DNA of 64,000 nucleotides from an uncultured Eubacteriales bacterium (GTDB lineage: Bacteria; Bacillota; Clostridia; Oscillospirales; Oscillospiraceae): NCBI GenBank assembly GCA_900317855.1, contig ONIG01000006.1, positions 3,918 through 67,917 of the forward strand, written 5' to 3'. Both the position numbers and the translations under genes were made by a program. Below the pieces are notes generated by a model. The model searched no databases. It saw only the letters and a program-made list of their open reading frames with translations, and was not told where the DNA came from. Positions 1,299-56,976 of the stretch are shown one piece after another. Positions within the stretch are counted from its first letter, which is position 1. Each line of letters begins with the position of its first letter.

Positions 1299-2135
1299 TC
1301 AGCTTTTTGGCGGCAGCACCATGGCAAATGCGCCGTCGGATGTGAGCGCCTGCGCGCTCAGCGCCAGCAGCATCGGCTCTGCCGCGCCGCCGATCCTCAC
1401 GCTGTCCGGCCGGAACGCCGGCAGCAGCGCGCCGGCCACGCCCACCGCGCGGTACGGCAGCAGCACGACCCGGCCGGTGCACTCCGGCAGCGCACTGAGC
1501 GCTTCCAGCGTCTGCACCGCGTCGTCCGGCAGCGCGTGCAGCGCCGGAAACAGCGGCAGCACCGCCGCGCGCTCGACCACCGCCGCCGGCAGGCCGGACA
1601 CCGGGTCGTGCAGGTCATTGCCGCTGTCGCGCAGGGCCTTGAGCGTCACGCTGCGCCCGGCGAGCATGACCGTCACGGTGCGCACCTCGCGGTCGGCGGC
1701 CTTTGCCCGCCGGCGGAACACGAGCGACACGGCCGCATAGCACGCGGCGAACGACAGCGCCAGCACCCGGCCCGACACCGTCACGAGCGCGCCGCTGCCC
1801 GGCGACACGCCTGCGAGCATACTCGCAGCGTACACCGTACCGCCGAACGCGGCCGACACGGCGAAGAACACCACCGTGCACCGCACGAGATGTGCCTCCC
1901 CGCCGAAGGCGATGAGCGCCATGGCCGCGCCGAGCGCGAGCTTCATCACACCGTTTGCCAGCCACCCGCAGCCGGGCAGGACCATGAGCGCCGCGTACAG
2001 CGCGCCGGTGAGCGCTGCGAGCGCGTACCGCCAGCGGCGCAGCACCACGCCGCATACGCGCGCAGAGGCCAGCACCAGGCAGTAATCGATCAGCAGATTC
2101 AGCCCGAACAGGCTGTCGAGATAGATGACGTCCAT
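1299..2135 (-). CDS. spoIIGA: Sigma-E processing aspartic peptidase SpoIIGA
   Basis: Five N-terminal TM helices plus a C-terminal domain with the DSGN motif ([15 protein letters not shown]). Conserved spoIIGA-sigE order. Confidence 0.85.
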
Positions 2136-2240
2136 GTGGGTATCCTAGCACGCCGCGCGCGGGAAATTGCGCAAAAGCGGCCTGCCGGAAAACCTGACAG
2201 AAAGTCCATGCATCGCCGGGGCGGGAAATGCCGCAGAGCG

Positions 2241-2269
2241 TTGCTTTTGCGCGATCCGGCTGGTATAAT
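2241..2269 (+). promoter_or_regulatory. Sigma-A-type promoter of the surface-module/ECF operon
   Basis: TTGCTT (2241-2246), 17-nt spacer, TATAAT (2264-2269) with an upstream TG (extended -10). The leader is about 65 nt and holds an 8-bp GC hairpin GCGCGCGG/CCGCGCGC. Confidence 0.55.
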
Positions 2270-2337
2270 GTTGCGTGATTTCGGAATTCGGCGCGCGGGC
2301 CGACCGCGCGCATCGTGACCCCTTCAGGAGGAAAATC

Positions 2338-3813
2338 ATGAAAACGAACAAACGGTTTCTGGCGCTGTGTCTGGCGCTGCTGCTCGTGTGCGCGGCGCTG
2401 CCGGCGCCGGCGGTGCAGGGCGCGGATGTGCAGCCAGTGCTCTCGGCCGCGCTGGCGCAGCAGGCGGCGGCCGTCCCGTCGCCGGGCTACGGCGATGAGT
2501 GGACGGTGCTGGGCCTTGCCCGCGGCGGGTATTTCGCCGTGGACAGCGACTATTTCGCGCGCTACTATGCAGACGTTGCGTCCAAGGCGCCGGAGCTCAC
2601 GGCAGCGTCCGGGCGCGACGGTGCGCTCAACGCCTACAAATCCACGGACAATTCGCGCGTCATCCTCGCGCTGTCCGCCATCGGGCGCGACGCGACGCAG
2701 GTCGGCGGCTGCGACCTTACCGCGCCATATGCCGACTTCGCCTGGGTACGTAATCAGGGCATCAACGGCCCGGTGTTTGCGCTGCTCGCGCTCGACAGCC
2801 GCAATTATCTGTCCGGCAGCGCGGTGCGCCGCCAGTGTGTGGACGCCATTCTGGCGGCGGAGCTCTCCGGCGGCGGCTGGGCGATGAGCGGTGCGGCGGC
2901 CGACCCGGACGTGACGGCCATGGTGCTGCAGGCGCTGGCGGCGTACCGCGGGGAGGCGGCCGTCGCAGCGGCCGTGTCGCGCGGCATTGACACGCTCTCG
3001 GCCATGCAGAGCAGCGACGGCGGCTTCACCTCGTGGGGCTCCGCCAACGCCGAGAGCGTCGCGCAGGTCATCGTGGCCTGCACGGCGCTGGGCATCGACC
3101 CGGACACGGACAGCCGCTTCGTCAAGGACGGCGGCTCGGCGGTCGATGCGCTGCTGACGTTTTATGATGCGGGCGCGGCCGCGTTCCGCCACAAGGCCTC
3201 CGGCGGCACGGACAGTCTCGCCACGGAGCAGGCGGTGTATGCGCTCGTGGCCGTCTCGCGGTTCCAGCGCGGGCAGAGCGGCCTCTATCAGGAGACGGAC
3301 ACGCCCACGGTCGAGACGCCTGCCGAGCCGGACGAACCGGTTGCGCGCGTGCTCTGCACGGCGGACGGCAGCGGCCTCATCCCGGCCGGATACCGCACGG
3401 TCGCCGTGTGCCTGCCGGACGTGACGGCGGACAGCACGGTCACGTTTTCCGACGGGACGCAGCTGCTCTACAGCCCCGTGCTCTCCGAGCGCAGCGACAC
3501 GCCGACGTGGGTCTGGCTCTTTGCGCCGGACGTGACGGATGACGCGCTCAATGACACGGCAAACTATACCGTGACGGACGAAAAAGGCCCGGTGCTGACC
3601 GTCGGCGATGGGAATGCCGACGGCGTTATCAACGTGCAGGATGCGATCAATATCCGCACGGCCTGTGCCGGCAGCGCGGTCCCAGCGGCGGAGCGGCTGC
3701 TGACGATGGATGTGAATCTCGACGGCCGTGTCGACGCGCGGGATGTGCGCGCGCTGGCCGACGGCTTTGTGCACAACACGGCGCTGCCCACGGCGCAGGA
3801 GGACGGACAATGA
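2338..3813 (+). CDS. Secreted alpha/alpha-toroid protein (prenyltransferase/terpene-cyclase-like, or transcobalamin alpha-domain-like) with a C-terminal type-I dockerin
   Basis: ATG 2338 follows AGGAGG. Signal peptide MKTNKRFLALCLALLLVCAALPAPAVQGA. Toroid-type repeats DVTAMVLQALAAY, SDGGFTSWGS and ESVAQVIVAC. Two C-terminal Ca-binding loops, DGNADGVINVQD and DVNLDGRVDARD (about 3601..3775). Confidence 0.7.
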   Translation: MKTNKRFLALCLALLLVCAALPAPAVQGADVQPVLSAALAQQAAAVPSPGYGDEWTVLGLARGGYFAVDSDYFARYYADVASKAPELTAASGRDGALNAYKSTDNSRVILALSAIGRDATQVGGCDLTAPYADFAWVRNQGINGPVFALLALDSRNYLSGSAVRRQCVDAILAAELSGGGWAMSGAAADPDVTAMVLQALAAYRGEAAVAAAVSRGIDTLSAMQSSDGGFTSWGSANAESVAQVIVACTALGIDPDTDSRFVKDGGSAVDALLTFYDAGAAAFRHKASGGTDSLATEQAVYALVAVSRFQRGQSGLYQETDTPTVETPAEPDEPVARVLCTADGSGLIPAGYRTVAVCLPDVTADSTVTFSDGTQLLYSPVLSERSDTPTWVWLFAPDVTDDALNDTANYTVTDEKGPVLTVGDGNADGVINVQDAINIRTACAGSAVPAAERLLTMDVNLDGRVDARDVRALADGFVHNTALPTAQEDGQ

Positions 3814-4367
3814 AGACTTTCCTGACGAAAAAGAACATTGCCATCGTGCTTGCCGTGCTGCTGGTCGTGGTCGTTGTGGTGCTGTGCATCACGATGCGGC
3901 AAAAGAGCGTCGCGGACACCGACCCCACGCTCACGCTCACAAGCCAGAGCGCGGACGCTGATGGCGCGTGCACGGTCGATGTTGTGCTCTCCGGCCTGCC
4001 GGACGGCGCGCACTATGCGGCGGCGAGCCTCGCCGTGGCCTTTGACCCGACGCAGATCACATTTCTCGGCACGTCGGACGGGGACATCCCGCTCGTGATG
4101 GGCAGCCTCCCGGAGTGGGAGAGTGACCCGGAGCGTGCCAACGAGACCGGCAGCGCACGCGCTCTGTGCCTGCCGGAGGATGACGGCACACTCGCCACAT
4201 CGACCGGCAGCGTGCTCGTGCGGCTGCGCTTTCAGCTCGCCGACGGTGTGACGGAGTCGGCGCTGACGGTGTCGGACGCCGTGCTGGCCGCCGCGGACGA
4301 ATCAGAGAGCCTTGCCACGACGACGGCCACGCTCACGGTCGTGAACGGGACGGTGCAGCGTGGCTAA
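3810..4367 (+). CDS. Single-pass membrane-anchored cohesin-like protein
   Basis: ATGA overlap with the upstream stop. N-terminal TM IAIVLAVLLVVVVVVLCI. The ectodomain follows the cohesin beta-sandwich pattern: CTVDVVLSGLPDG....ASLAVAFDPTQITFLG ... GSVLVRLRFQLADG..ESALTVSD ... TLTVVNGTV. Confidence 0.6.
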   Translation: MKTFLTKKNIAIVLAVLLVVVVVVLCITMRQKSVADTDPTLTLTSQSADADGACTVDVVLSGLPDGAHYAAASLAVAFDPTQITFLGTSDGDIPLVMGSLPEWESDPERANETGSARALCLPEDDGTLATSTGSVLVRLRFQLADGVTESALTVSDAVLAAADESESLATTTATLTVVNGTVQRG

Positions 4368-4860
4368 GCGGCGCGCGCTCAGTCTGCTGCTGTGCCTGCT
4401 GCTTTTGCTGTGCACGGCCTGCGGCGGGCAGGTGCAGGAGGATGACGGCGCGCTGCACTGCACGGTAACAATCGAGTGCAGCACGGTGCTGGAGCATATG
4501 GACGACCTGAAGCCCGGCAAGGCGGACATCGTCCCGCCTGACGGTGTGCTCCTGCCGGAGACGACCGTCTCCTTCTCGGAGGGGGACACGGTGTTCGATG
4601 TGCTGCAGCGGGTCTGCCGCGCGCAGGGCCTCCACATGGAGTCGACCTGGACGCCTGCATACAACAGCGCCTATATCGAGGGCATCGGCAACCTCTACGA
4701 ATTTGACTGCGGCGAGCTGTCCGGCTGGATGTACAGTGTCAACGGTGTCTGGCCGGACTACGGCTGCAGCGGCTACACGCTGCACGACGGCGACACCGTC
4801 GTCTGGAGCTATACCTGCGACCTCGGGCGCGACGTCGGCGCCCAGCAAGGAGAACCATGA
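4360..4860 (+). CDS. DUF4430 (transcobalamin-like C-terminal beta domain) lipoprotein
   Basis: GTG start overlapping the upstream stop by 8 nt. Lipobox LLLLC-TAC-GG. DUF4430-like core GDTVFDVL...YIEGIGNLYEFDCGELSGWMYSVNG..PDYG...Y.LHDGDTVVWSYT. Confidence 0.75.
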   Translation: MAKRRALSLLLCLLLLLCTACGGQVQEDDGALHCTVTIECSTVLEHMDDLKPGKADIVPPDGVLLPETTVSFSEGDTVFDVLQRVCRAQGLHMESTWTPAYNSAYIEGIGNLYEFDCGELSGWMYSVNGVWPDYGCSGYTLHDGDTVVWSYTCDLGRDVGAQQGEP

Positions 4861-5747
4861 ACGATTCCTTCTCGGCGCTGCACCCGGCGCTGACCTTTTG
4901 CTATTTTGCGGCCGTGCTGCTGCTGACGATGCTCGTGCTGCACCCGGTATTTCTGGCGCTGAGCCTGCTGGGCGCGCTGGGCTACTGTGCGGTGCTGCGC
5001 GGCTGGCGCAGCCTGGGGCGGACGCTCGGCTGGCTCGTGCCGTTTCTGGTGCTGATGGCGGCGCTCAACGCATTGTTCAACCATGCGGGCGTGACGATGC
5101 TGTTCTACCTGCCGAACGGCAACCCCGTCACGCGCGAGGCGCTGTGCTACGGCGCGGCCGCGGCGGCGATGTTCGCGGCCGTGATCCTGTGGTTCCAGTG
5201 CTGCAACGTTGTCATGACGGCGGAGAAATATCTGTACGTGTTCGGCAGCGCGCTGCCGGGCGTGTCGCTGCTGCTGAGCATGGCGCTGCGGTTCGTGCCG
5301 AAGTTTTCCGCGCACATCCGCGCCGTGCGCGCGGCGCAGGCGTCGCTCGGCTGCGGCACGCGCGAGGGCAATGCGTGGCAGCGGCTGAAAAATGGTGCGC
5401 GCATTTTGTCTGTCACCGTCTCGTGGGCGCTAGAGAGTGGCATCACGGCGGCGGACTCGATGAAGAGCCGGGGCTACGGCGCCGGCAGAAGAACCTATTT
5501 CGGCAATTACCATTTCACCCGGCGCGACGGTGTGCTCTGCGCCGTTTTTGCGCTCGCGCTTGCGGGCGTGTGCGCGGGCGTTGGCTGCGGCGCGCTGTAT
5601 GTGCGCTACTATCCGTCGATCCGCATCGGCGGCGACGGTGCGCTCGGCGCGGTATGCATGGTGTGCTTTGCGCTGCTGTGCTTTCTGCCGCTGCTGCTCG
5701 ATGGAAAGGAGGCACTGACATGGCGTCGTTTGCGCTCGAACATCTGA
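4857..5747 (+). CDS. ECF transporter transmembrane (T) component, CbiQ/EcfT family
   Basis: ATGA overlap with the DUF4430 gene. Polytopic protein with an EcfT-like coupling region (ALRFVP...RAVRAAQ..RG). Confidence 0.85.
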   Translation: MNDSFSALHPALTFCYFAAVLLLTMLVLHPVFLALSLLGALGYCAVLRGWRSLGRTLGWLVPFLVLMAALNALFNHAGVTMLFYLPNGNPVTREALCYGAAAAAMFAAVILWFQCCNVVMTAEKYLYVFGSALPGVSLLLSMALRFVPKFSAHIRAVRAAQASLGCGTREGNAWQRLKNGARILSVTVSWALESGITAADSMKSRGYGAGRRTYFGNYHFTRRDGVLCAVFALALAGVCAGVGCGALYVRYYPSIRIGGDGALGAVCMVCFALLCFLPLLLDGKEALTWRRLRSNI

Positions 5748-7330
5748 CGTTTACCTATCCGGGCCAGACGCGCCCGGCGCTCGATGACCTCACGCTCACG
5801 GTCCCGGAGGGCGCGGTCACCGTCCTCTGCGGCGAGAGCGGCAGCGGCAAATCGACCCTCCTGCGCCAGCTCAAGACCTGCCTCACGCCGCACGGCACGG
5901 TCAGCGGCACGGTGCGCCTCGGGGACACGCCCTTAAAGGACATCCCGTTTGCTGAGCAGGCGCGGCGCATCGGTTTTGTGCTCCAGCACCCGGATGATCA
6001 GATCGTGACGGACAAGGTGTTCCACGAGCTGGCGTTCGGGCTCGAGAGCCTCGGCTGCGAGGAAAAAACCATGCGTCTGCGCGTCGCCGAGATGGCGAGC
6101 TACTTCGGCATTGCCGACTGGTTCGCGCGCGACGTGGGCGCGCTCTCCGGCGGCCAGAAGCAGATGCTCAACCTCGCGTCCGTCGTGGTCATGCGGCCGG
6201 ACGTGCTCATTTTAGACGAGCCGACGAGCCAGCTCGACCCCATCGCGGCGAGTACTTTCCTGCACACGCTGCGCAAGCTCAACGAGGAGCTGGGGCTGAC
6301 GATCCTGCTGTCCGAGCAGCGGCTGGAGGAGGCCGTGCCGCTGGCCGACCACCTCATCGTGCTCGAGCAGGGGCGGCTGCTGGCCGCCGGTGCGCCGCAG
6401 GAGGCGGCGGCCGCGGTGCGTGGTCATGCGATCTTTTCTGCCATGCCCACGGCGGCGCGCATTGCCGCCGCCCTCGGCGAGACGGAGCGTCTGCCGCTCA
6501 CCGTGCGCGCGGGCAGAGCGTATCTGGGGCGCTTTTCTCCGCACCCGATGCCGGACGCAGCGCCCGCGCCCGTGGGCACGCCCCCGGTGCTCACCGTGCG
6601 CGACGGCTGGTTTCGCTACGCGCAAGGCAGCGCGGACGTGCTGCGCAATTTCTCGCTCGCGCTGCGCCCGGGTGAGCTCTACGCGCTCACCGGCAGCAAC
6701 GGCAGCGGCAAGACAACGGCGCTCGGCGTGCTCTCCGGGCGGCTGCGGCTCTACCGCGGCAGCGTGTACCTCAATGGGAAGCGGCAGCGCGCGCTCCAGC
6801 CTCTGCGCGACGGCATCGCCGCCGTGCCGCAGGACCCGCGCACGCTCTTCGCGGCCGACACGGTGCGCGCCGATCTCGCTTCGCTTGGCAGGGACGCCGC
6901 GCTGGTGGACACGGTCGTGCGGCAGATGGCGCTCGCGCCGCTGCTCGACCGGCACCCCTTTGACCTCTCCGGCGGCGAGCAGCAGCGCGCTGCGCTGGCG
7001 AAGGTGCTGCTCATGCAGCCGCGCGTGCTGCTGCTCGACGAGCCGACGAAGGGCATGGATGGCGCGTTCAAGGCTGACTTCGGCGCGCTTTTGCGCGCGC
7101 TCTGCGCGCAGGGCGCGGCCGTGTGCATCGTGAGCCACGATGTGGAGTTCTGCGCGCAGTACGCCGACCGCTGCGGCCTGCTCTTTCGCGGCGAGGTCGT
7201 GACGGAAAACGCCGCGCGTGCATTTTTCTCCGGCAATTATTTTTACACCACGGCGGCCGCGCGCATCGCGCGCACCGCTGCGCCCGGCGCGGTACTGTGC
7301 GGGGAGGTCGTGCAATGTCTCACCGATTGA
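5720..7330 (+). CDS. Fused duplicated ECF ATPase (EcfA-EcfA')
   Basis: True start is ATG 5720 after GGAAAGGAGG. The track ORF 4544..7330 carries a spurious N-terminal extension. Two complete ABC cassettes: GESGSGKST/LSGGQKQ/ILDEPTSQLD and GSNGSGKTT/LSGGEQQR/LLLDEPTKGMD. Confidence 0.9.
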   Translation: MASFALEHLTFTYPGQTRPALDDLTLTVPEGAVTVLCGESGSGKSTLLRQLKTCLTPHGTVSGTVRLGDTPLKDIPFAEQARRIGFVLQHPDDQIVTDKVFHELAFGLESLGCEEKTMRLRVAEMASYFGIADWFARDVGALSGGQKQMLNLASVVVMRPDVLILDEPTSQLDPIAASTFLHTLRKLNEELGLTILLSEQRLEEAVPLADHLIVLEQGRLLAAGAPQEAAAAVRGHAIFSAMPTAARIAAALGETERLPLTVRAGRAYLGRFSPHPMPDAAPAPVGTPPVLTVRDGWFRYAQGSADVLRNFSLALRPGELYALTGSNGSGKTTALGVLSGRLRLYRGSVYLNGKRQRALQPLRDGIAAVPQDPRTLFAADTVRADLASLGRDAALVDTVVRQMALAPLLDRHPFDLSGGEQQRAALAKVLLMQPRVLLLDEPTKGMDGAFKADFGALLRALCAQGAAVCIVSHDVEFCAQYADRCGLLFRGEVVTENAARAFFSGNYFYTTAAARIARTAAPGAVLCGEVVQCLTD

Positions 7331-8016
7331 CGCGGCGCACCTGGGCCGCGCTCGGCATCCTGCTCGTTGCGATCCCGGCGCTGATGGCGGTGTTCGTATG
7401 CGTGTGGGACGAGCGGAAGTACTACCTCACGTCGCTGCTGCTCGTGGGGCTGATGTTTGTGCCGTTCGTGCTGCGGTTTGAAGGCCGCAGGCCGCAGGCG
7501 CGCGAGCTCGTGCTGCTCGCGACGATGACGGCGCTGGCCGTGGCCGGGCGCGCGGTGTTTTACTGGCTGCCGCAGTGCAAGCCTGTGTGCGCGATCGTGA
7601 TCCTCACGGCCGTGGCCTTCACGCCGGAGGCAGGCTTCGTCACCGGCGCGGCGGCGGGCCTGATCTCGAACTTTTTCTTCGGGCAGGGGCCGTGGACGCC
7701 GTGGCAGATGCTCGGCTTCGGGCTCGTGGGCTTTCTCGGCGGCGTGCTGTTTGCCGGGCGGAAGGTGCGGCTCGTGCCGCTGCTGCTCTACGGCTTTTTC
7801 TCGGTGCTCATCGTCTACGGCGTGCTGCTCGATACGGCGAGCATGCTCATGTACAACGCCGTGCCCTCGTGGCAGCTGTGGCTGGCGACCTGCGCGTCGG
7901 GATTTGTGTTCAACCTCATCCACGCGGGCGCGACGGCCGTGTTCCTGCTCCTGCTGTATAAGCCCCTGCTCACCAAGCTCGCGCGCGTGAAAGAAAAGTA
8001 CGGACTTCTGGAATGA
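7315..8016 (+). CDS. ECF transporter substrate-specific (S) component, substrate unknown
   Basis: ATG 7315 after GGGGAGG, overlapping the ATPase stop. Six predicted TM helices. Contains NFFFGQGPWTPWQM, which I recall from the ECF_trnsp S-component family. Confidence 0.75.
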   Translation: MSHRLTRRTWAALGILLVAIPALMAVFVCVWDERKYYLTSLLLVGLMFVPFVLRFEGRRPQARELVLLATMTALAVAGRAVFYWLPQCKPVCAIVILTAVAFTPEAGFVTGAAAGLISNFFFGQGPWTPWQMLGFGLVGFLGGVLFAGRKVRLVPLLLYGFFSVLIVYGVLLDTASMLMYNAVPSWQLWLATCASGFVFNLIHAGATAVFLLLLYKPLLTKLARVKEKYGLLE

Positions 8017-8021
8017 AAAAA

Positions 8022-8051
8022 CTCCGCATCCAATCGGATGCGGAGATTTTT
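8022..8051. terminator. Bidirectional intrinsic terminator
   Basis: Stem CTCCGCATCC/GGATGCGGAG with loop AATC. A-run upstream and T-run downstream. Confidence 0.75.
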
Positions 8052-8956: not shown

Positions 8957-10648
8957 TCAGACGGTGTGCCTGCGGATGAGCGGCTCCACCTGCGCTGCCA
9001 GCTGCGCGAGCGCGCCCGGCTCGAACGGGGAGCGGAAGCCCGCCTCGGCCAGCAGGTCCGTCCAGAGCTTTTCGCCGCCCTGCTGCGACAGGTGCAGGTA
9101 GCGGGCGAACGCGCCGTCATAATCGTCCTGCGACGCGAGCAGGAACTGAAACGCCGCCGTCTGCGCCAGACAGTAGTCGATGTAGTAAAACGGCGTCTCG
9201 TAGATGTGCATCTGGTACTGCCAGCGGGTGCCGCGCTCGAGATACGGGATGCCGCTCTGGTCGATATACGGGCGGTATTTCGCCTCCAGCTCCAGCCAGA
9301 CGGCGTTGCGTTCGGCCGGGGTGAGGTCGGGCTCGGCGTAGACGCGGTGCTGGAATTCGTCCACCATCGTGCCGTAGGGCAGGAAGCTGAGCGCATCGAG
9401 CGCGTGCTGGAAGCGGTAGCGCTCCGCGTCGCCCGCCTTCGGGAAGAAGGCGTCGAGATACGGCCAGGCGAAAAACTCCATGCTCATCGAGTGCGTTTCG
9501 GCGGTCTCCATGCCGCCGCAGCCGAGCTCGAGCGCGAAGCGGTTGTCCGCGATCAGGTAGGCGTTGAGCGCATGGCCGGCCTCGTGCGTCACGACGTCCA
9601 TGTCGCCGGACGTGCCGTTGAAGTTTGCGAGGATGAACGGCTGCCGGAACTTCGGAAACTCCGTGCAGTAGCCGCCGCCCCATTTGTTCGGGCGGGACTC
9701 GACGTCGAAGGCCTCATTTTCGCACATCATGCGGAAAAATGCGCCCGGCACGTCGCCCATGGCGTCGTACATCTTCTGCGCAGCGGCGAAGAGTTCGTCC
9801 TTGCCGCAGGGCGTTGGGTCGCCGCCGGGGGTGAAAAATTCGTTGTCGTAGAGCCGGAACGTGTCGATGCCGAGACGCTTCGCGTTTTCCAGCCGCAGCC
9901 GGGACACGACCGGCACGATGTCGCGCACGATGTTCTCGCGGAAGGTCTGCACGGCCTGCGCGTCGTAGCACATGCGCTCCATGCGGCAGTAGCCAAGCTC
10001 GATGAAGTTTTCATAGCCCATCTTTTTGGCCATCCGGTCGCGCACGTGTACGAGCCGGTCGAAAATATCATCCAGCTGCGCGCTGTGCGCTTCCAGCGTT
10101 GTGCCGAGGGCCTCGTAGCATTCCCTGCGCGTGGCGCGGTCGGCGCTGCGGGCGTATTTCATCAGCATCGGCCGCGGCAGCTGCTCGCCCCGGAAGGGGA
10201 AGAGCATGCCCGCCATGAGCTGTGCGTATTCGCTGACGATCTTGTTTTCCTCGACCATGTCGTCGATGATCTCCGGCGACATGCTCCGCCGCTGCAGCTC
10301 CATGCTGCGCAGCAGGATCGGCGAGAGCGCCGTCTCGAGTTCTTTCCGGAACGGGCTGTCGAGCACGGCGGAGGTGTACTGCAGCGCGAGATTTTCGACC
10401 TCCGGGCCGATCTCGTCATAGTAGTCCTTTTCCGCCAGATAAAACGGGTCGACGGTGTTGATCGTGTAGCGCATGTACGACAGCGACTGCGCTGTGGCGT
10501 ACTCCGTCGTGAGCGAGAGATATTCCGCTCGCGCGGCAAGAATTTCCTCCACGCTCTGCGCGGCCTTTACGCGCTCGATCACGCGCTGCAGCCCTTTGGC
10601 CATTTCCTCGCGCGTCACGCGCCGGTAGGGGAGTTCGGATACTTTCAT
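8957..10648 (-). CDS. M3B-family oligoendopeptidase (PepF-like)
   Basis: Start MKVSELPY at 10648 after GGAAAGGAG. Zinc motif HEAGHAL. About 563 aa. The track ORF extends spuriously to 11056. Confidence 0.85.
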   Translation of the reverse strand: MKVSELPYRRVTREEMAKGLQRVIERVKAAQSVEEILAARAEYLSLTTEYATAQSLSYMRYTINTVDPFYLAEKDYYDEIGPEVENLALQYTSAVLDSPFRKELETALSPILLRSMELQRRSMSPEIIDDMVEENKIVSEYAQLMAGMLFPFRGEQLPRPMLMKYARSADRATRRECYEALGTTLEAHSAQLDDIFDRLVHVRDRMAKKMGYENFIELGYCRMERMCYDAQAVQTFRENIVRDIVPVVSRLRLENAKRLGIDTFRLYDNEFFTPGGDPTPCGKDELFAAAQKMYDAMGDVPGAFFRMMCENEAFDVESRPNKWGGGYCTEFPKFRQPFILANFNGTSGDMDVVTHEAGHALNAYLIADNRFALELGCGGMETAETHSMSMEFFAWPYLDAFFPKAGDAERYRFQHALDALSFLPYGTMVDEFQHRVYAEPDLTPAERNAVWLELEAKYRPYIDQSGIPYLERGTRWQYQMHIYETPFYYIDYCLAQTAAFQFLLASQDDYDGAFARYLHLSQQGGEKLWTDLLAEAGFRSPFEPGALAQLAAQVEPLIRRHTV

Positions 10649-11550
10649 GCTTGCTCCTTTCCAAGTTCCGCGGCCTCGGGGTCCGTGCGCAGCGTCTGCC
10701 GGGCGAAGGCGAGAAACCGCTTCGCCGCCGGGGACAGCTCCTCCGGCGCGGGTGCGGCGATGCCGATCTCGGCATACTGCGGCGGATCGACCGGGAGGAT
10801 CACGATGCCGGTCGTGTCCCAGCCGCGGGTGATGAGTTGATTGTTCAGGCTCACGCCGAGACCGGCCTGCACCATGGCAAAGGTGGCGCGGCTGTCCACG
10901 GACGTGTAGCGGACGTTCGGCGTGATGCCTGCTCGGGCGAACACGCGCGCGTTGTCCGTGTCCTGGTGCATATAGGTCGCGATGGTCGGCTCGGTCGCAA
11001 ATGCCGCGAGCGGGAACGCCTTTCCCCCGGCCAGCGGATGCTCCGGCGGCAGCCACGCGACCATGGGGTCGGCGTACAGCGGGATCCAGTCAAAGTCGCC
11101 CTCGCGGAAGCTCGTGATGCAGAAGTCAGCCGTGTGCTCGCTCACGGCGCGCGTGAGCTGGCTGCTGTTGCCCTGCAGGACCTGCACCTCAATGCCGGGG
11201 TAGACCTCGCAGAAGCGGGCGATGCAGCGGCTGAGCCAGCCGTAGTACGCCCCGTAGACGCAGCCGACGGCGATGGTGCCGGTCTCGACGCCGCGGATCT
11301 CGTCCGCCTGCGCGTCGAGCAGGGCACTCCAGTGCGTCAGCTCCCGCAGCGTCGGCAGCAGTGTTTGGCAGGCGCGCGTCGGCTGCACGCCGCTGTGCGA
11401 GCGGCTCAGCAGCGGGAAGCCCAGCTCCTGCTCGAGCGCCGCCATCATCCGGCTCAGGCCGGAGGGGGTGTAGTCCAGTTTTTCCGCCGCCGCCGAGAGG
11501 CTCCCGGCCTCGAGCACGGCCAGCAGTGCGCGGCATTTTTCCGTGTCCAT
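10645..11550 (-). CDS. LysR-family transcriptional regulator
   Basis: N-terminal wHTH MDTEKCRALLAVLEAGSLSAAAEKLDYTPSGLSRMMAALEQELGFPLL plus a LysR substrate-binding domain. Its stop overlaps the pepF start (ATGA). Confidence 0.9.
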   Translation of the reverse strand: MDTEKCRALLAVLEAGSLSAAAEKLDYTPSGLSRMMAALEQELGFPLLSRSHSGVQPTRACQTLLPTLRELTHWSALLDAQADEIRGVETGTIAVGCVYGAYYGWLSRCIARFCEVYPGIEVQVLQGNSSQLTRAVSEHTADFCITSFREGDFDWIPLYADPMVAWLPPEHPLAGGKAFPLAAFATEPTIATYMHQDTDNARVFARAGITPNVRYTSVDSRATFAMVQAGLGVSLNNQLITRGWDTTGIVILPVDPPQYAEIGIAAPAPEELSPAAKRFLAFARQTLRTDPEAAELGKEQA

Positions 11551-11564
11551 AAGCTGCCTCCGTT

Positions 11565-11581
11565 CTTGCGTAGTACGCAAG
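11565..11581. promoter_or_regulatory. Perfect 8-1-8 palindrome containing a T-N11-A core; candidate LysR operator
   Basis: CTTGCGTA-G-TACGCAAG lies 15 nt upstream of the lysR start, in the lysR/EamA divergent region. A further half-site TTACGCAA lies about 30 nt away. Confidence 0.5.
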
Positions 11582-11661
11582 GAACCATTGAAACATTGTC
11601 TCTTTACGCAATGATATAACCGTGGTATCGTTTCGTCAAGATATTTTCGGGAGGAATACGG

Positions 11662-12537
11662 ATGAAGACCCGGACCATGACGCGCACACAGGCGGAGCTG
11701 CTGCTGGCAGCGGTCATCATTGCGCGCAGCACATCGTATGTGCTTACAAAAGTCGGCTTGCAGGACATGGGCAAATTCACGCTGCTGGCGGTGCGGTTTT
11801 TGCTGGCGTTTGCGTTTCTGGCCGTGCTGTTCTGGCGGCGGCTGCTGCAGATCGACCGGCGCACGCTGCTGAGCGGTCTTGCCATGGGCGGCATTTACTT
11901 TTGCGTCATGACGGCGGAGCTCACGGCGCTGAAAACGGTGGAGACCTCCACCGTGTCGTTCGTGACGAATACGGCCGTCGTCATCGTGCCGCTCGTTCAG
12001 GCGGTGCTCAGCCGCCGGTGGCCGGAGCACCGTGTGCTGCTCGGCGCGCTGGCGTGTCTGCTGGGCGTGGCACTGCTGACGCTGCGCAACGGCCTTGCGC
12101 TCACGCCGGGCGTTGGGTACTGTATTCTGGAGGCGTTTTTGTATTCGGCGGCCATTCTCGTGACCGACCGGCTCACGCACGCCGGAGCGGCCCCCCTGCT
12201 GTCCGGCGTGGTGCAGGTGGGCTTTCTGGGCGTGCTGGCGCTCATCGCATCGTTTCTGTTTGAGACGCCGCACCTGCCAGGCAGCGGCACGGAGTGGCTG
12301 GCCGTGCTGGCGCTGGCGCTCGTGTGCAGCGGCTTTGGCTTCACGCTCCAGCCGGTCGCGCAGAGCGGGACAACGGCGGACCACGCGGCGCTGTTTTGCG
12401 CGCTCAATCCCTTCGTTGCGGCAACGCTGGGCGCGGTGTGCTTTCATGAGCACTTCGGCCTCGCGGGCCTGCTCGGCGGCGCGCTGATTTTAGCTGGGAT
12501 CCTGGCGTCCTGTTGGCCGCAGAAAACCGGCGGATGA
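11662..12537 (+). CDS. EamA/DMT-family transporter
   Basis: 10-TM protein with duplicated EamA-like halves. GGGAGGA RBS. Divergent from lysR. Confidence 0.85.
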   Translation: MKTRTMTRTQAELLLAAVIIARSTSYVLTKVGLQDMGKFTLLAVRFLLAFAFLAVLFWRRLLQIDRRTLLSGLAMGGIYFCVMTAELTALKTVETSTVSFVTNTAVVIVPLVQAVLSRRWPEHRVLLGALACLLGVALLTLRNGLALTPGVGYCILEAFLYSAAILVTDRLTHAGAAPLLSGVVQVGFLGVLALIASFLFETPHLPGSGTEWLAVLALALVCSGFGFTLQPVAQSGTTADHAALFCALNPFVAATLGAVCFHEHFGLAGLLGGALILAGILASCWPQKTGG

Positions 12538-55004: not shown

Positions 55005-55586
55005 ATGCGAAATGACGACAAGCACGTCTCCGGTGTATGTGCGGCCGATGGCCAGCCGCCGGATGATGCGCTCATCCTGCGCATAGCGCGGGGTGACACC
55101 GCCGCGCTGGAAACGCTGTATCGCCAGACGTCCGCTTCCATTTACGGCTTCGCGCTGTCCATCCTTCGGGATCCGACGGCGGCGGAGGATGTGATGCAGG
55201 ACACGTTTGTGAGCGTGATGCAGTCGGCGCCGGGCTATCAGCCGTCGGGCAAACCGATGGCGTGGCTGCTGACGATCGCGCGCAATCTGGCGTTGATGCG
55301 CCTGCGCAAGGCGGAAAACAAAAACCTGTCTTTTGATGAGCTGTTTCATGTGGAAGATACGCATGATGCCTATCAGGTGACAGAGAATCATATGGTGCTT
55401 GAGAAAGTGCTGCATACGCTCACAGACAGCGAGCGGCAGATCGTGATGCTGCATGCGCTGTCCGGGCTCAAGCACAGAGAAGTTGCTGACCTGCTGGGGA
55501 TCCCGCAGGCAACAGCCATTTCTCGCTATAACCGTGCGCTTGGAAAGCTGCGCAATTCGATGGGAGGTGACGATCTTGACCGATAA
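55005..55586 (+). CDS. ECF-type RNA polymerase sigma-70 family factor
   Basis: Region 2 (AAEDVMQDTFVSV...WLLTIARNLA) and region 4 HTH ([28 protein letters not shown]). Confidence 0.85.
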   Translation: MRNDDKHVSGVCAADGQPPDDALILRIARGDTAALETLYRQTSASIYGFALSILRDPTAAEDVMQDTFVSVMQSAPGYQPSGKPMAWLLTIARNLALMRLRKAENKNLSFDELFHVEDTHDAYQVTENHMVLEKVLHTLTDSERQIVMLHALSGLKHREVADLLGIPQATAISRYNRALGKLRNSMGGDDLDR

Positions 55587-56976
55587 GGAATTGCTGGAAC
55601 AGCTGCGGACCGAGGTCGTTGCCGAGACGCCGGATTGCTGGAGCGCCATCTTGGCGCGTGTGCAGGCCCCGGCGCAGCAGCCGGAGGAGGAGAAGGTCGT
55701 CCCGATGCCGGAGCGCGGACGTCGCCGCGGCGCGTGGAAGCGCTGGGTCGCAGCGGCGGCGGTGTTCTTCCTGGCCGTGCTCGGTGGCGGACTGTATGCC
55801 ACGCAGGTGCCCGGAGGCGTCGCTACGCTCGATGCCAACCCCAGCATCGAGCTGACGGTCAACAAGCTCGGCCGCGTCCTGTCTGCACGCGCGTGCAACC
55901 CGGACGCCCAGTTTGTGCTCGACGATCTGGAGCTGCGCAATCAGTCCCTGCAGACGGCGGCGGACGAAATCGTCGCCGCAATGCAGACAGATGGCTATCT
56001 ATCGGCAGATACGAACTCCGTCCTCGTGACGGTCGAGGCCGGCAAGGGCGATGCGCGTCTGCGCGACCGGCTGGCTGCGGCCGTGGAAAGCGCCCAGACG
56101 GATTGCGGCATGGACCCTGCGGTCCTTGCTCAGGTGCTGGAGGTGGATCCGGAGCTGGAGGCTTATGCCTCTGCCGCGGGTGTCAGCGCCGGCAAGGCGA
56201 TGCTGATCCGGCAGATCAGCGACCAGGTGCAGGACCTTTCCGGCGAGGAGCTGGTCAGCCTGCCGATCAACGATCTGAACATTCTGGCGGCCTCCAATGA
56301 CGTGGCGTTTGCCGGCATGGAGTCGATCGGTGCTGCCAGCACCGGCGCCTACATTCCATATAACGAGGCGCTGCAGGCAGCGCTCGAGCGCTGCGGTCTG
56401 ACTGCGGACGATGTCACGCAGGCCAGCATGCGCTTCACGCTCATCGACGGGGAAATGGTCATGGAGTTCGCACTCACGGACGGCGAGCGGCACTATGTGT
56501 GCAGCGTCGATGCCGAGACGGCGGAGGTCTGCCGCCTGACGGGCGACGAGCCGAAGCAGCCGGAGGAAACGGAGATCATTCCGGTGCCGCCGACGGTTCA
56601 GCCAAATCCGAACCTGCCTGTGACACCCATACCGACACCGACGTCGACTCCGACGCCCACACCGACGCCGACGCCTACTCCGACGCCGACGCCTACTCCG
56701 ACGCCGACGCCTACTCCGACGCCGACGCCTACCCCGACGCCGACCCCGCCCGCGGGCCCGGTCACACAGGAGCAGGCGCTGAAGATCGCCATTGCGGCGG
56801 CCGGCATCGCGGAGCGCGACCTTGCCGCATGGGATGTCCAACTCGACGAGAGCGGTGCACAGCCGGTTTACCGCGTGACGCTCACGACGATGTACTACTT
56901 CCACCCGCATTACGTCGTGATCGTCGATCAGCAGACCGGCGCGGTCCTCTCGGTGGACAAAACGCCGACCTTATGA
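55576..56976 (+). CDS. Putative anti-sigma factor: N-terminal cytoplasmic segment, one TM helix, and an extracytoplasmic region with two PepSY-like domains split by a (Pro-Thr)n linker
   Basis: TTG 55576 lies after GGGAGGTGA and overlaps the sigma-gene stop. TM helix WVAAAAVFFLAVLGGGLYA. C-terminal PepSY-like segment QALKIAIAAAGI...DESGAQPVYRVTL...VIVDQQTGAVLSVDK. Confidence 0.6.
   Translation: MTDKELLEQLRTEVVAETPDCWSAILARVQAPAQQPEEEKVVPMPERGRRRGAWKRWVAAAAVFFLAVLGGGLYATQVPGGVATLDANPSIELTVNKLGRVLSARACNPDAQFVLDDLELRNQSLQTAADEIVAAMQTDGYLSADTNSVLVTVEAGKGDARLRDRLAAAVESAQTDCGMDPAVLAQVLEVDPELEAYASAAGVSAGKAMLIRQISDQVQDLSGEELVSLPINDLNILAASNDVAFAGMESIGAASTGAYIPYNEALQAALERCGLTADDVTQASMRFTLIDGEMVMEFALTDGERHYVCSVDAETAEVCRLTGDEPKQPEETEIIPVPPTVQPNPNLPVTPIPTPTSTPTPTPTPTPTPTPTPTPTPTPTPTPTPTPTPTPPAGPVTQEQALKIAIAAAGIAERDLAAWDVQLDESGAQPVYRVTLTTMYYFHPHYVVIVDQQTGAVLSVDKTPTL
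56626..56750 (+). repeat. In-frame tandem repeat encoding (Pro-Thr)n
   Basis: 6-nt periodicity throughout. The core has 3 perfect copies and 1 near-perfect copy of the 18-nt unit CCGACGCCGACGCCTACT (56662-56733). Confidence 0.85.

Follow-up and report, generated by a model that had tools for sequence, protein, structure and literature searches.

In a 64-kb stretch of DNA (64,000 nucleotides of contig ONIG01000006.1, hereafter the window) from an uncultured Eubacteriales bacterium, an operon for an energy-coupling factor (ECF) transporter begins with two overlapping genes, one for a secreted alpha/alpha-toroid protein that ends in a type I dockerin, and one for a small membrane-anchored protein with a cohesin domain. 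We propose that these two modules are a private 1:1 pair which probably acts as a non-covalent membrane tether for the toroid protein, a binding that we infer from sequence.

The toroid protein, 491 amino acids long, consists of a Sec-type signal peptide (residues ~1-28), which is its only hydrophobic segment, a toroid (~32-310), a small beta domain (~336-413) and the C-terminal dockerin. Two Ca2+-binding loops, DGNADGVINVQD (nt 3607-3642) and DVNLDGRVDARD (nt 3709-3744, both in the frame of 2338..3813), each carry D or N at positions 1, 3, 5, 9 and 12. Across the six reading frames of the 64 kb, a regular expression for such loops matches these two sites only; they share an open reading frame (ORF), are 34 residues apart, and start exactly at nt 3607 and 3709, where the initial annotation had placed two canonical 12-residue loops. 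That annotation had also assigned the last ~55 residues to a dockerin; the type I assignment stands, while the extent was too short, as the module spans the last ~70 residues. Pfam Dockerin_1 (PF00404) gives a significant match on residues 423-473 (27.6 bits against a cut-off of 22.9, E = 3.3e-6), as the annotation had led us to expect, and a phmmer search of the PDB retrieves solved dockerins (best 6kg9, E = 2e-4). In the AlphaFold2 (AF2) model, helices follow the loops at residues 433-444 and 467-479, with a linker helix at 451-457 and a predicted local distance difference test (pLDDT) score of 81-88. In the module, a 12-residue EF-hand-like loop with a helix after it thus occurs twice, as duplicated segments. 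These segments are dissimilar (VQ and AR at loop positions 10-11), a difference that points to a single mode of binding.

The window protein is a minimal form of the toroid family. Most orthologues are ~900 amino acids long (e.g., 9197-11911 in locus L006 and 3171-5849 in L002) and add an N-terminal DUF4430-like domain and beta domains between toroid and dockerin. A paralogous class of ~850 amino acids (L019 851-3379, L020, L022, and L029) has DUF4430 and cadherin-like domains and keeps a conserved C-terminal tail, '...SLKNVVRALYLYNQAANAY..'; its gene in L019 is riboswitch-controlled, with no ECF genes within ~9 kb downstream.

The cohesin gene starts inside the toroid stop codon, just as had been read from the sequence initially. 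The toroid stop TGA occupies 3811-3813 and the cohesin ATG 3810-3812, with AGGAGG 7 nt 5' of this ATG, and the ATGA overlap is a predicted translational coupling of the two genes. The 185-residue product has a helix at residues 7-30 (nt 3828-3899), a linker of ~9 residues and a domain at ~40-183 (nt 3927-4358). A phmmer search of the PDB with this single ectodomain returned only a chance-level match to an iron-binding protein and no cohesin, and therefore a family profile was needed. A word-indexed homologue search gave relatives of at least 59% identity only, none with a precomputed Pfam domain across the cohesin region, and an exhaustive search of representatives recovered a family of ~200-residue proteins with 26-45% identity to the window protein and the same layout. 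Pfam Cohesin matches 34 of 37 members of this family (E <= 0.01; best E = 1.1e-11), and precomputed Pfam assigns Cohesin to the relatives P0243 and P0260. Searched against the PDB, the family profile retrieves cohesins only (best 4uyp, E = 8.5e-6). The AF2 model built on the family alignment (pLDDT 92.4) has 10 strands and one short helix in residues 40-183, and its top 50 Foldseek matches in the PDB are all cohesins of types I, II and III, non-cellulosomal ones included (best 5nrm_A, E = 2.7e-7, target-normalised TM score 0.72). The protein is thus predicted to carry a cohesin-type beta sandwich, the fold that had been anticipated from its strand pattern, and the family-level evidence is decisive here.

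In all 59 cohesin-family proteins of the fetched loci, the N-terminal region contains an uncharged run of 17-31 residues (median 21), with a median of five K/R residues before it and one after it, and ~8 residues between it and the domain. This is the signature of an N-in/C-out (type II) signal anchor, which would place the domain near the outer face of the membrane and agrees with the N-terminal transmembrane anchor proposed initially. The 64-kb window holds no second cohesin or dockerin, and neither a glycoside hydrolase nor a carbohydrate-binding module (CBM) was found in the operon and the scanned window ORFs. A cellulosome or amylosome reading was dropped on account of the single cohesin, a toroid that is not a carbohydrate-active enzyme (CAZyme), the lack of CAZymes and CBMs, and the housekeeping chromosomal surroundings.

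The two modules also travel together. With a toroid-domain profile we collected 80 loci from species-representative genomes and scanned them locally with profile hidden Markov models for cohesin, dockerin, toroid, and transporter parts, counting dockerin-bearing toroid genes with enough downstream sequence (61) and complete dockerin-less toroid genes (9). A cohesin-family gene lies directly 3' of 60 of the 61 dockerin-bearing toroid genes, its start falling anywhere from 105 nt before to 83 nt after the toroid stop, and next to none of the nine dockerin-less ones, so that orthologous operons carry both modules or neither, the pattern which the initial annotation had asked about (Fisher p = 1.5e-10, for loci that share ancestry and are not phylogenetically independent). 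The start-stop overlap recurs in six loci besides the window (L003, L004, L012-L014, and L067). The order toroid-dockerin, cohesin, DUF4430, EcfT, EcfA-A', S component is kept down to 26-45% cohesin identity, in metagenome-assembled genomes (MAGs) of Oscillospiraceae, Lachnospiraceae, Ruminococcus, Acutalibacteraceae, Faecousia, and Lawsonibacter as well as in Clostridium sp. CCUG 7971, and two additional contexts, found via the cohesin, show the identical gene order. The toroid-dockerin/cohesin arrangement is conserved in about 60 genomes.

Among ECF-linked toroids, a dockerin occurs with a membrane-anchored cohesin gene, with locus L011 as the single exception. Those without a dockerin end differently. 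Several have a C-terminal hydrophobic helix with a K/R tail (two in L028, one in L053, and many database homologues), and the one in L027 has C-terminal surface-layer homology (SLH) repeats instead (96 bits). Therefore, the toroid C terminus appears to be a slot for interchangeable surface-retention devices, of which the dockerin would be one.

The genes from 2338 to 8016 are one operon, since all six overlap or abut and a terminator follows at 8022-8045. Their order is toroid-dockerin, cohesin, DUF4430 lipoprotein, EcfT, EcfA-A', and S component, and the five junctions are, in this order, an ATGA (3810), an 8-nt overlap, a second ATGA (4857), a 28-nt overlap and a 16-nt overlap. The features are as follows, with the evidence for each in brackets.

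2136..2337, + strand: divergent intergenic region between spoIIGA and the operon, presumed promoter, with a ribosome-binding site AGGAGG ahead of the ATG at 2338
2338..3813, + strand: gene for the secreted alpha/alpha-toroid protein, 491 amino acids, with C-terminal dockerin (Pfam, AF2, Foldseek)
3604..3756, + strand: predicted type I dockerin module, residues 423-473 (Pfam, phmmer, Ca2+-loop pattern, AF2)
3810..3813, + strand: ATGA overlap of the toroid-dockerin stop and the cohesin start (read from the sequence)
3810..4367, + strand: gene for the predicted membrane-anchored cohesin, 185 amino acids (Pfam, family profile, AF2, Foldseek)
4360..4860, + strand: gene for the DUF4430 protein, 166 amino acids, with lipoprotein-type signal peptide (Pfam DUF4430, 72 bits)
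4857..5747, + strand: gene for the EcfT-type transmembrane coupling component, 296 amino acids (PDB matches, CbiQ in orthologues)
5720..7330, + strand: gene for the fused double ATPase EcfA-A', 536 amino acids (two ABC_tran domains, NCBIfam)
7315..8016, + strand: gene for the CbrT-like ECF S component, a membrane protein of 233 amino acids (Pfam ECF-ribofla_trS, 6fnp_A)
8022..8045, both strands: bidirectional terminator that ends the operon, a 10-bp GC-rich hairpin with T runs on both strands

The initial annotation had placed the pair in a transport rather than a cellulosomal context, and the operon bears this out and sharpens it to a transporter of the B12 type, through the CbrT match and the cobalamin riboswitches of 14 related loci. 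As in a dedicated-module (group I) ECF transporter, the genes for the S component, for EcfT, and for both EcfA ATPase domains lie together. The EcfT-type protein matches EcfT proteins only in the PDB (E = 2e-5), and its orthologues match Pfam CbiQ; the two ABC_tran domains of EcfA-A' are recognized by the NCBIfam models ECF_ATPase_1 (E = 5e-88) and ECF_ATPase_2 (E = 1e-84). The S component matches Pfam ECF-ribofla_trS (37 bits), and its sole match in the PDB is 6fnp_A (E = 2.3e-10, residues 59-230 aligned). PDB 6FNP is the structure of the vitamin B12 transporter ECF-CbrT (PMC5997447), in which chain A appears to be CbrT, judging from its length of 182 residues and its label 'Membrane protein'. 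Most relatives have a single ORF of ~870-940 amino acids that covers both EcfA-A' and the S component, an apparent ATPase/S fusion (e.g., L006 14394-17210, L007 14573-17215, and L008 12816-15470); in the window they are separate genes in different frames (5720-7330 and 7315-8016, with the 16-nt overlap).

The DUF4430 protein has a signal peptide that ends in …LLLCTAC, and a lipobox-like motif is found in 40 of 55 orthologues. Its size is 166 amino acids in the window and ~375 in most orthologous loci. DUF4430 is the C-terminal domain in transcobalamin-family B12 binders (PMC4350170), and a correspondence of toroid and DUF4430 proteins to transcobalamin was proposed by HHpred for the homologues in Lactobacillus sakei (bioRxiv 10.1101/864751). 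The toroid part in the window matches Pfam SQHop_cyclase_C (30.6 bits), and Foldseek confirms the toroid fold of the model (pLDDT 86.4), with matches to class II terpene cyclases, to GH105 enzymes, and to the transcobalamin structures 2bb6 (E = 8e-4), 2bb5, 7qbf, and 4zrp. By analogy, it is plausible that the toroid and DUF4430 proteins are equivalent to the alpha and beta domains of transcobalamin, as a split binder.

A cobalamin riboswitch (Rfam RF00174) lies on the same strand just 5' of the toroid gene in 14 related loci, including L070 (8544-8727) and L008 (6681-6888), and L002 has two in tandem (2392-2578 and 2748-2925). Because relatives of the operon sit behind these riboswitches, we interpret the operon family as a corrinoid-uptake system, and a cargo of the corrinoid type is very likely for the family as a whole.

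Taken together, we suggest the following mechanism, in line with the initial annotation, which had the cohesin protein pin the toroid protein to the cell surface beside the lipoprotein and the ECF complex, a reading that the computed results support. The toroid protein, which has no membrane anchor of its own, would be exported by Sec, and its C-terminal type I dockerin would plug, in a Ca2+-dependent manner, into the cohesin encoded by the next gene. The type II (N-in, C-out) membrane protein would hold this cohesin ~9 residues above the bilayer, thereby keeping the docked toroid beside the DUF4430 lipoprotein and the CbrT-like S component. The toroid and the lipid-anchored DUF4430 protein might then close around a corrinoid in the manner of the two transcobalamin domains, and the captured corrinoid could be passed to the S component for ATP-driven import rather than being lost by diffusion. 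We also considered, as an unlikely variant, that the cohesin-dockerin joint is a reversible, Ca2+-gated dock and not a static anchor. In that case the toroid would act as a protein 'corrinophore'. Released from the cell, it would pick up scarce corrinoid from the gut lumen or from cells nearby, re-dock on the membrane cohesin, and unload to the DUF4430 lipoprotein and CbrT.

Several results weigh against the tether or against its proposed cargo, and they are best read together with the rival explanations that they favour. One of these is that both modules are real and not mutual partners, such that the dockerin binds a scaffoldin or anchoring cohesin encoded elsewhere and the operon cohesin receives other dockerin proteins. 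In L011 (692-1891), a 399-residue toroid protein bears a dockerin (Pfam, 43.7 bits) and the operon has no cohesin, the toroid gene being 3' of a cobalamin riboswitch and followed directly by DUF4430-EcfT-EcfA/S; thus, a toroid dockerin can apparently use a partner encoded elsewhere. (A cohesin hidden in the L011 DUF4430 protein was considered, and Pfam finds none there.) Further dockerin proteins are encoded near some loci (L014 6281-8428 and L035 19154-21508), and Ruminococcus bromii has one of its 26 dockerins on a 'putative terpene cyclase', together with several promiscuous cohesins (PMC4611034). However, the L011 dockerin is visibly different, being more canonical and internally symmetric, whereas the operon-linked dockerins form a family of their own with asymmetric segments. 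Strict adjacency with both modules or neither (60/61 versus 0/9), the start-stop overlap in the window and six related loci, and the window's lack of a further cohesin or dockerin likewise speak for dedicated partners, and we consider this explanation quite unlikely. Distances between the families do not help in this respect. Cohesin and dockerin distances correlate with r = 0.85, but the partial correlation, controlled for toroid and EcfT, is 0.37, compared with 0.38 for cohesin and toroid, and distance-matrix (mirror-tree) co-evolution is not pair-specific and is uninformative. Identity ratios of the window clade are 0.49 for the dockerin, the most diverged, 0.64 for the cohesin, 0.67 for EcfT, and 0.66 for the S component, the cohesin being no more diverged than the latter two. 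Cohesin distances in fact follow EcfT distances closely (r = 0.93), which would fit a cohesin-like sandwich that is a ligand-handling or transporter-accessory domain and no dockerin receptor, with the dockerin as a Ca2+-stabilised tail. The window protein by itself also scores just under the Pfam Cohesin (PF00963) cut-off (22.9 versus 24.1 bits; E = 1.1e-4, model positions 2-133 of 139 aligned), so that the profile match implied by the initial annotation is borderline for this protein alone and robust for its relatives and the family profile; and identity to the solved cohesins among the top 50 Foldseek matches is only 11-18%. Nevertheless, an accessory domain would leave unexplained why the cohesin gene is found only where the toroid bears a dockerin, and why the dockerin gives way to covalent anchors in the absence of a cohesin, and all of the structural neighbours are dockerin-binding cohesins, which makes such a role very unlikely.

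It is also conceivable that the hydrophobic segment at the start of the cohesin protein serves as a signal peptide and is cleaved off, and that cohesin and toroid form a soluble, secreted heterodimer. The segment is N-terminal, preceded by lysines and signal-peptide-like, but its uncharged stretch of 17-31 residues (median 21) in the family is longer than a typical Sec h-region. In the window protein, K/R and polar residues follow the segment and a small-x-small site is missing, and only ~8 residues separate segment and domain in the family, with the AF2 model showing one long helix at 7-30; secretion as a soluble pair is, therefore, highly improbable. Alternatively, the tether may hold while the cargo in the window lineage is heme or another tetrapyrrole instead of a corrinoid. 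No cobalamin riboswitch was detected in the window, 2136-2337 included, at either the Rfam gathering cut-off or E <= 1, and the closest relatives, L003 and L004, likewise have none; B12-responsive control has apparently been lost in this clade, or its substrate has changed. The homologous L. sakei operon lsa1836-1840 was tied experimentally to heme uptake, to which it contributed (bioRxiv 10.1101/864751). Further, the dockerin, cohesin, EcfT, and S component of the window clade are unusually diverged from the family. By contrast, riboswitch control in 14 related loci, CbrT as the sole solved relative of the S component, and the failure of ECF-CbrT to accept hemin as a competitor (PMC5997447) argue for a corrinoid, and we regard a different tetrapyrrole as rather unlikely. 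Since the window operon lacks the riboswitch, its substrate is read by homology, and we are less sure of a corrinoid for the window clade than for the family. The binder itself is subject to a similar reservation. Terpene cyclases (E = 1.8e-5) rank over transcobalamin (E = 8e-4) in the fold search with the toroid, and the homology to transcobalamin is therefore plausible rather than demonstrated.

The proposed tether resembles cellulosomal type I pairs in its components, a ~70-residue dockerin with two EF-hand-like Ca2+ loops and a ~145-residue beta-sandwich cohesin, and the best profile and fold matches of the operon cohesin are solved cellulosomal cohesins such as those of Acetivibrio cellulolyticus ScaB/ScaC (5nrm and 4uyp) and Clostridium thermocellum OlpA/OlpC (3ul4 and 4dh2). 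In OlpA and OlpC, a single cohesin similarly anchors a dockerin protein to the cell. Unlike cellulosomes, however, the operon system has neither CAZymes nor a CBM, nor a scaffoldin that bears repeated cohesins; its cohesin relies for anchoring on an N-terminal membrane helix instead of SLH repeats or sortase; and the pair is encoded by adjacent overlapping genes within a transporter operon. Cohesins and dockerins that serve ends other than cellulose degradation are known from the amylosome of R. bromii (PMC4611034), from glycosidase and toxin complexes of Clostridium perfringens (2w1n, 2jh2, and 2o4e), and from the Archaeoglobus fulgidus cohesin 2xdh. These non-cellulosomal systems assemble enzymes or toxins; a place in a nutrient transporter operon or a dedicated 1:1 tethering role has not been described for any of them. 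The dockerin-bearing 'putative terpene cyclase' of R. bromii (PMC4611034) is probably a homologue of the operon toroid protein; three of the dockerins in R. bromii L2-63 bound none of Sca1-4.

As a transporter, the system is comparable to ECF-CbrT of Lactobacillus delbrueckii (6FNP, PMC5997447), with which it shares a CbrT-like S component, EcfT, and EcfA-A'. ECF-CbrT relies on a shared ECF module and lacks extracellular binding proteins, whereas the operon here encodes a dedicated module, with three surface-protein genes ahead of it. The L. sakei operon lsa1836-1840 agrees with it in the core genes, comprising an S component, a fused A-A', a T component, a beta-like protein of the DUF4430 type, and an alpha-like toroid protein, the latter two both with export signals (bioRxiv 10.1101/864751). 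It differs in that cohesin and dockerin are not reported, in its link to heme, and in that surface retention of the alpha-like protein is unaddressed. The mammalian proteins transcobalamin, intrinsic factor, and haptocorrin share an alpha6/alpha6 toroid and a small beta domain (DUF4430) that clamp cobalamin. Compared with transcobalamin, the operon would divide these parts between two polypeptides with separate tethers, cohesin-dockerin for one and a lipid for the other. In Bacteroides, BtuG and BtuH are surface lipoproteins for B12 capture. Like them and the sortase-anchored Isd heme receptors of staphylococci, the proposed system has a surface-held, high-affinity binder that feeds a membrane transporter; however, folds and anchoring (lipidation, sortase) are unrelated, and none of these is known to use a cohesin-dockerin pair. 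A full-text literature search (cohesin/dockerin with ECF transport, DUF4430, cobalamin/B12, or terpene cyclase) found no description of the arrangement, nor had the initial annotation been aware of a role for these modules in assembling a vitamin or nutrient uptake machine. The two modules themselves are ordinary dockerins and cohesins, and non-cellulosomal pairs are known; what seems to be new is their proposed use as a dedicated, operon-encoded 1:1 membrane tether in a B12-type ECF system.

Upstream of the operon, a sigE-like sigma factor gene and a SpoIIGA-like protease gene, recognized from their translations, run divergently (560-2135, - strand), which suggests a spore-forming Clostridia host. 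The rest of the 64-kb window consists of housekeeping genes (penicillin-binding proteins, MurE, UvrC, and MutS2). Its G+C content is 64%, the nearest genome is an Oscillospiraceae MAG with 92% protein identity, and the sequence is present in bovine and sheep gut metagenomes. A 3.5-kb contig from the RNA-seq run X25, 98% identical, is unbroken over 1900-4596 (spoIIGA, toroid, cohesin, and part of the DUF4430 gene); it crosses both gene junctions but also the divergent spoIIGA, and DNA carry-over is possible. Two other RNA libraries gave short contigs only, intragenic apart from one that crosses the cohesin/DUF4430 junction. Elsewhere in the window, an ORF at 55453-56976 (+ strand) encodes the central domain of an RsgI-like anti-sigma factor (88 bits) and a PepSY domain; nothing evident links it to the operon. 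Factors of the RsgI type are known chiefly for the polysaccharide-sensing control of cellulosome genes in C. thermocellum.

In most descriptions, ECF transporters do without extracellular binding proteins, and competition for scarce B12 is far less understood in Gram-positive gut bacteria than in Bacteroides. The operon family occurs in dozens of species-level genomes of gut Clostridia and suggests that many of them keep a split, transcobalamin-like binder at the membrane, where the problem of retaining it is solved by a dedicated cohesin-dockerin pair. This would extend the role of cohesin and dockerin from the scaffolding of enzymes to the assembly of a nutrient-uptake machine. It would also offer a compact natural 1:1 pair, a small self-anchored cohesin with a ~70-residue tag, in many orthogonal variants that might be of use in surface display. 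If the joint were indeed a reversible dock, cohesin-dockerin would be a general, evolvable private address system for Gram-positive gut nutrient scavengers, and ECF transporters reliant on extracellular binding proteins would form a class not recognised before. For Oscillospiraceae, Lachnospiraceae, and Ruminococcus, the tether provides a testable model of corrinoid capture.

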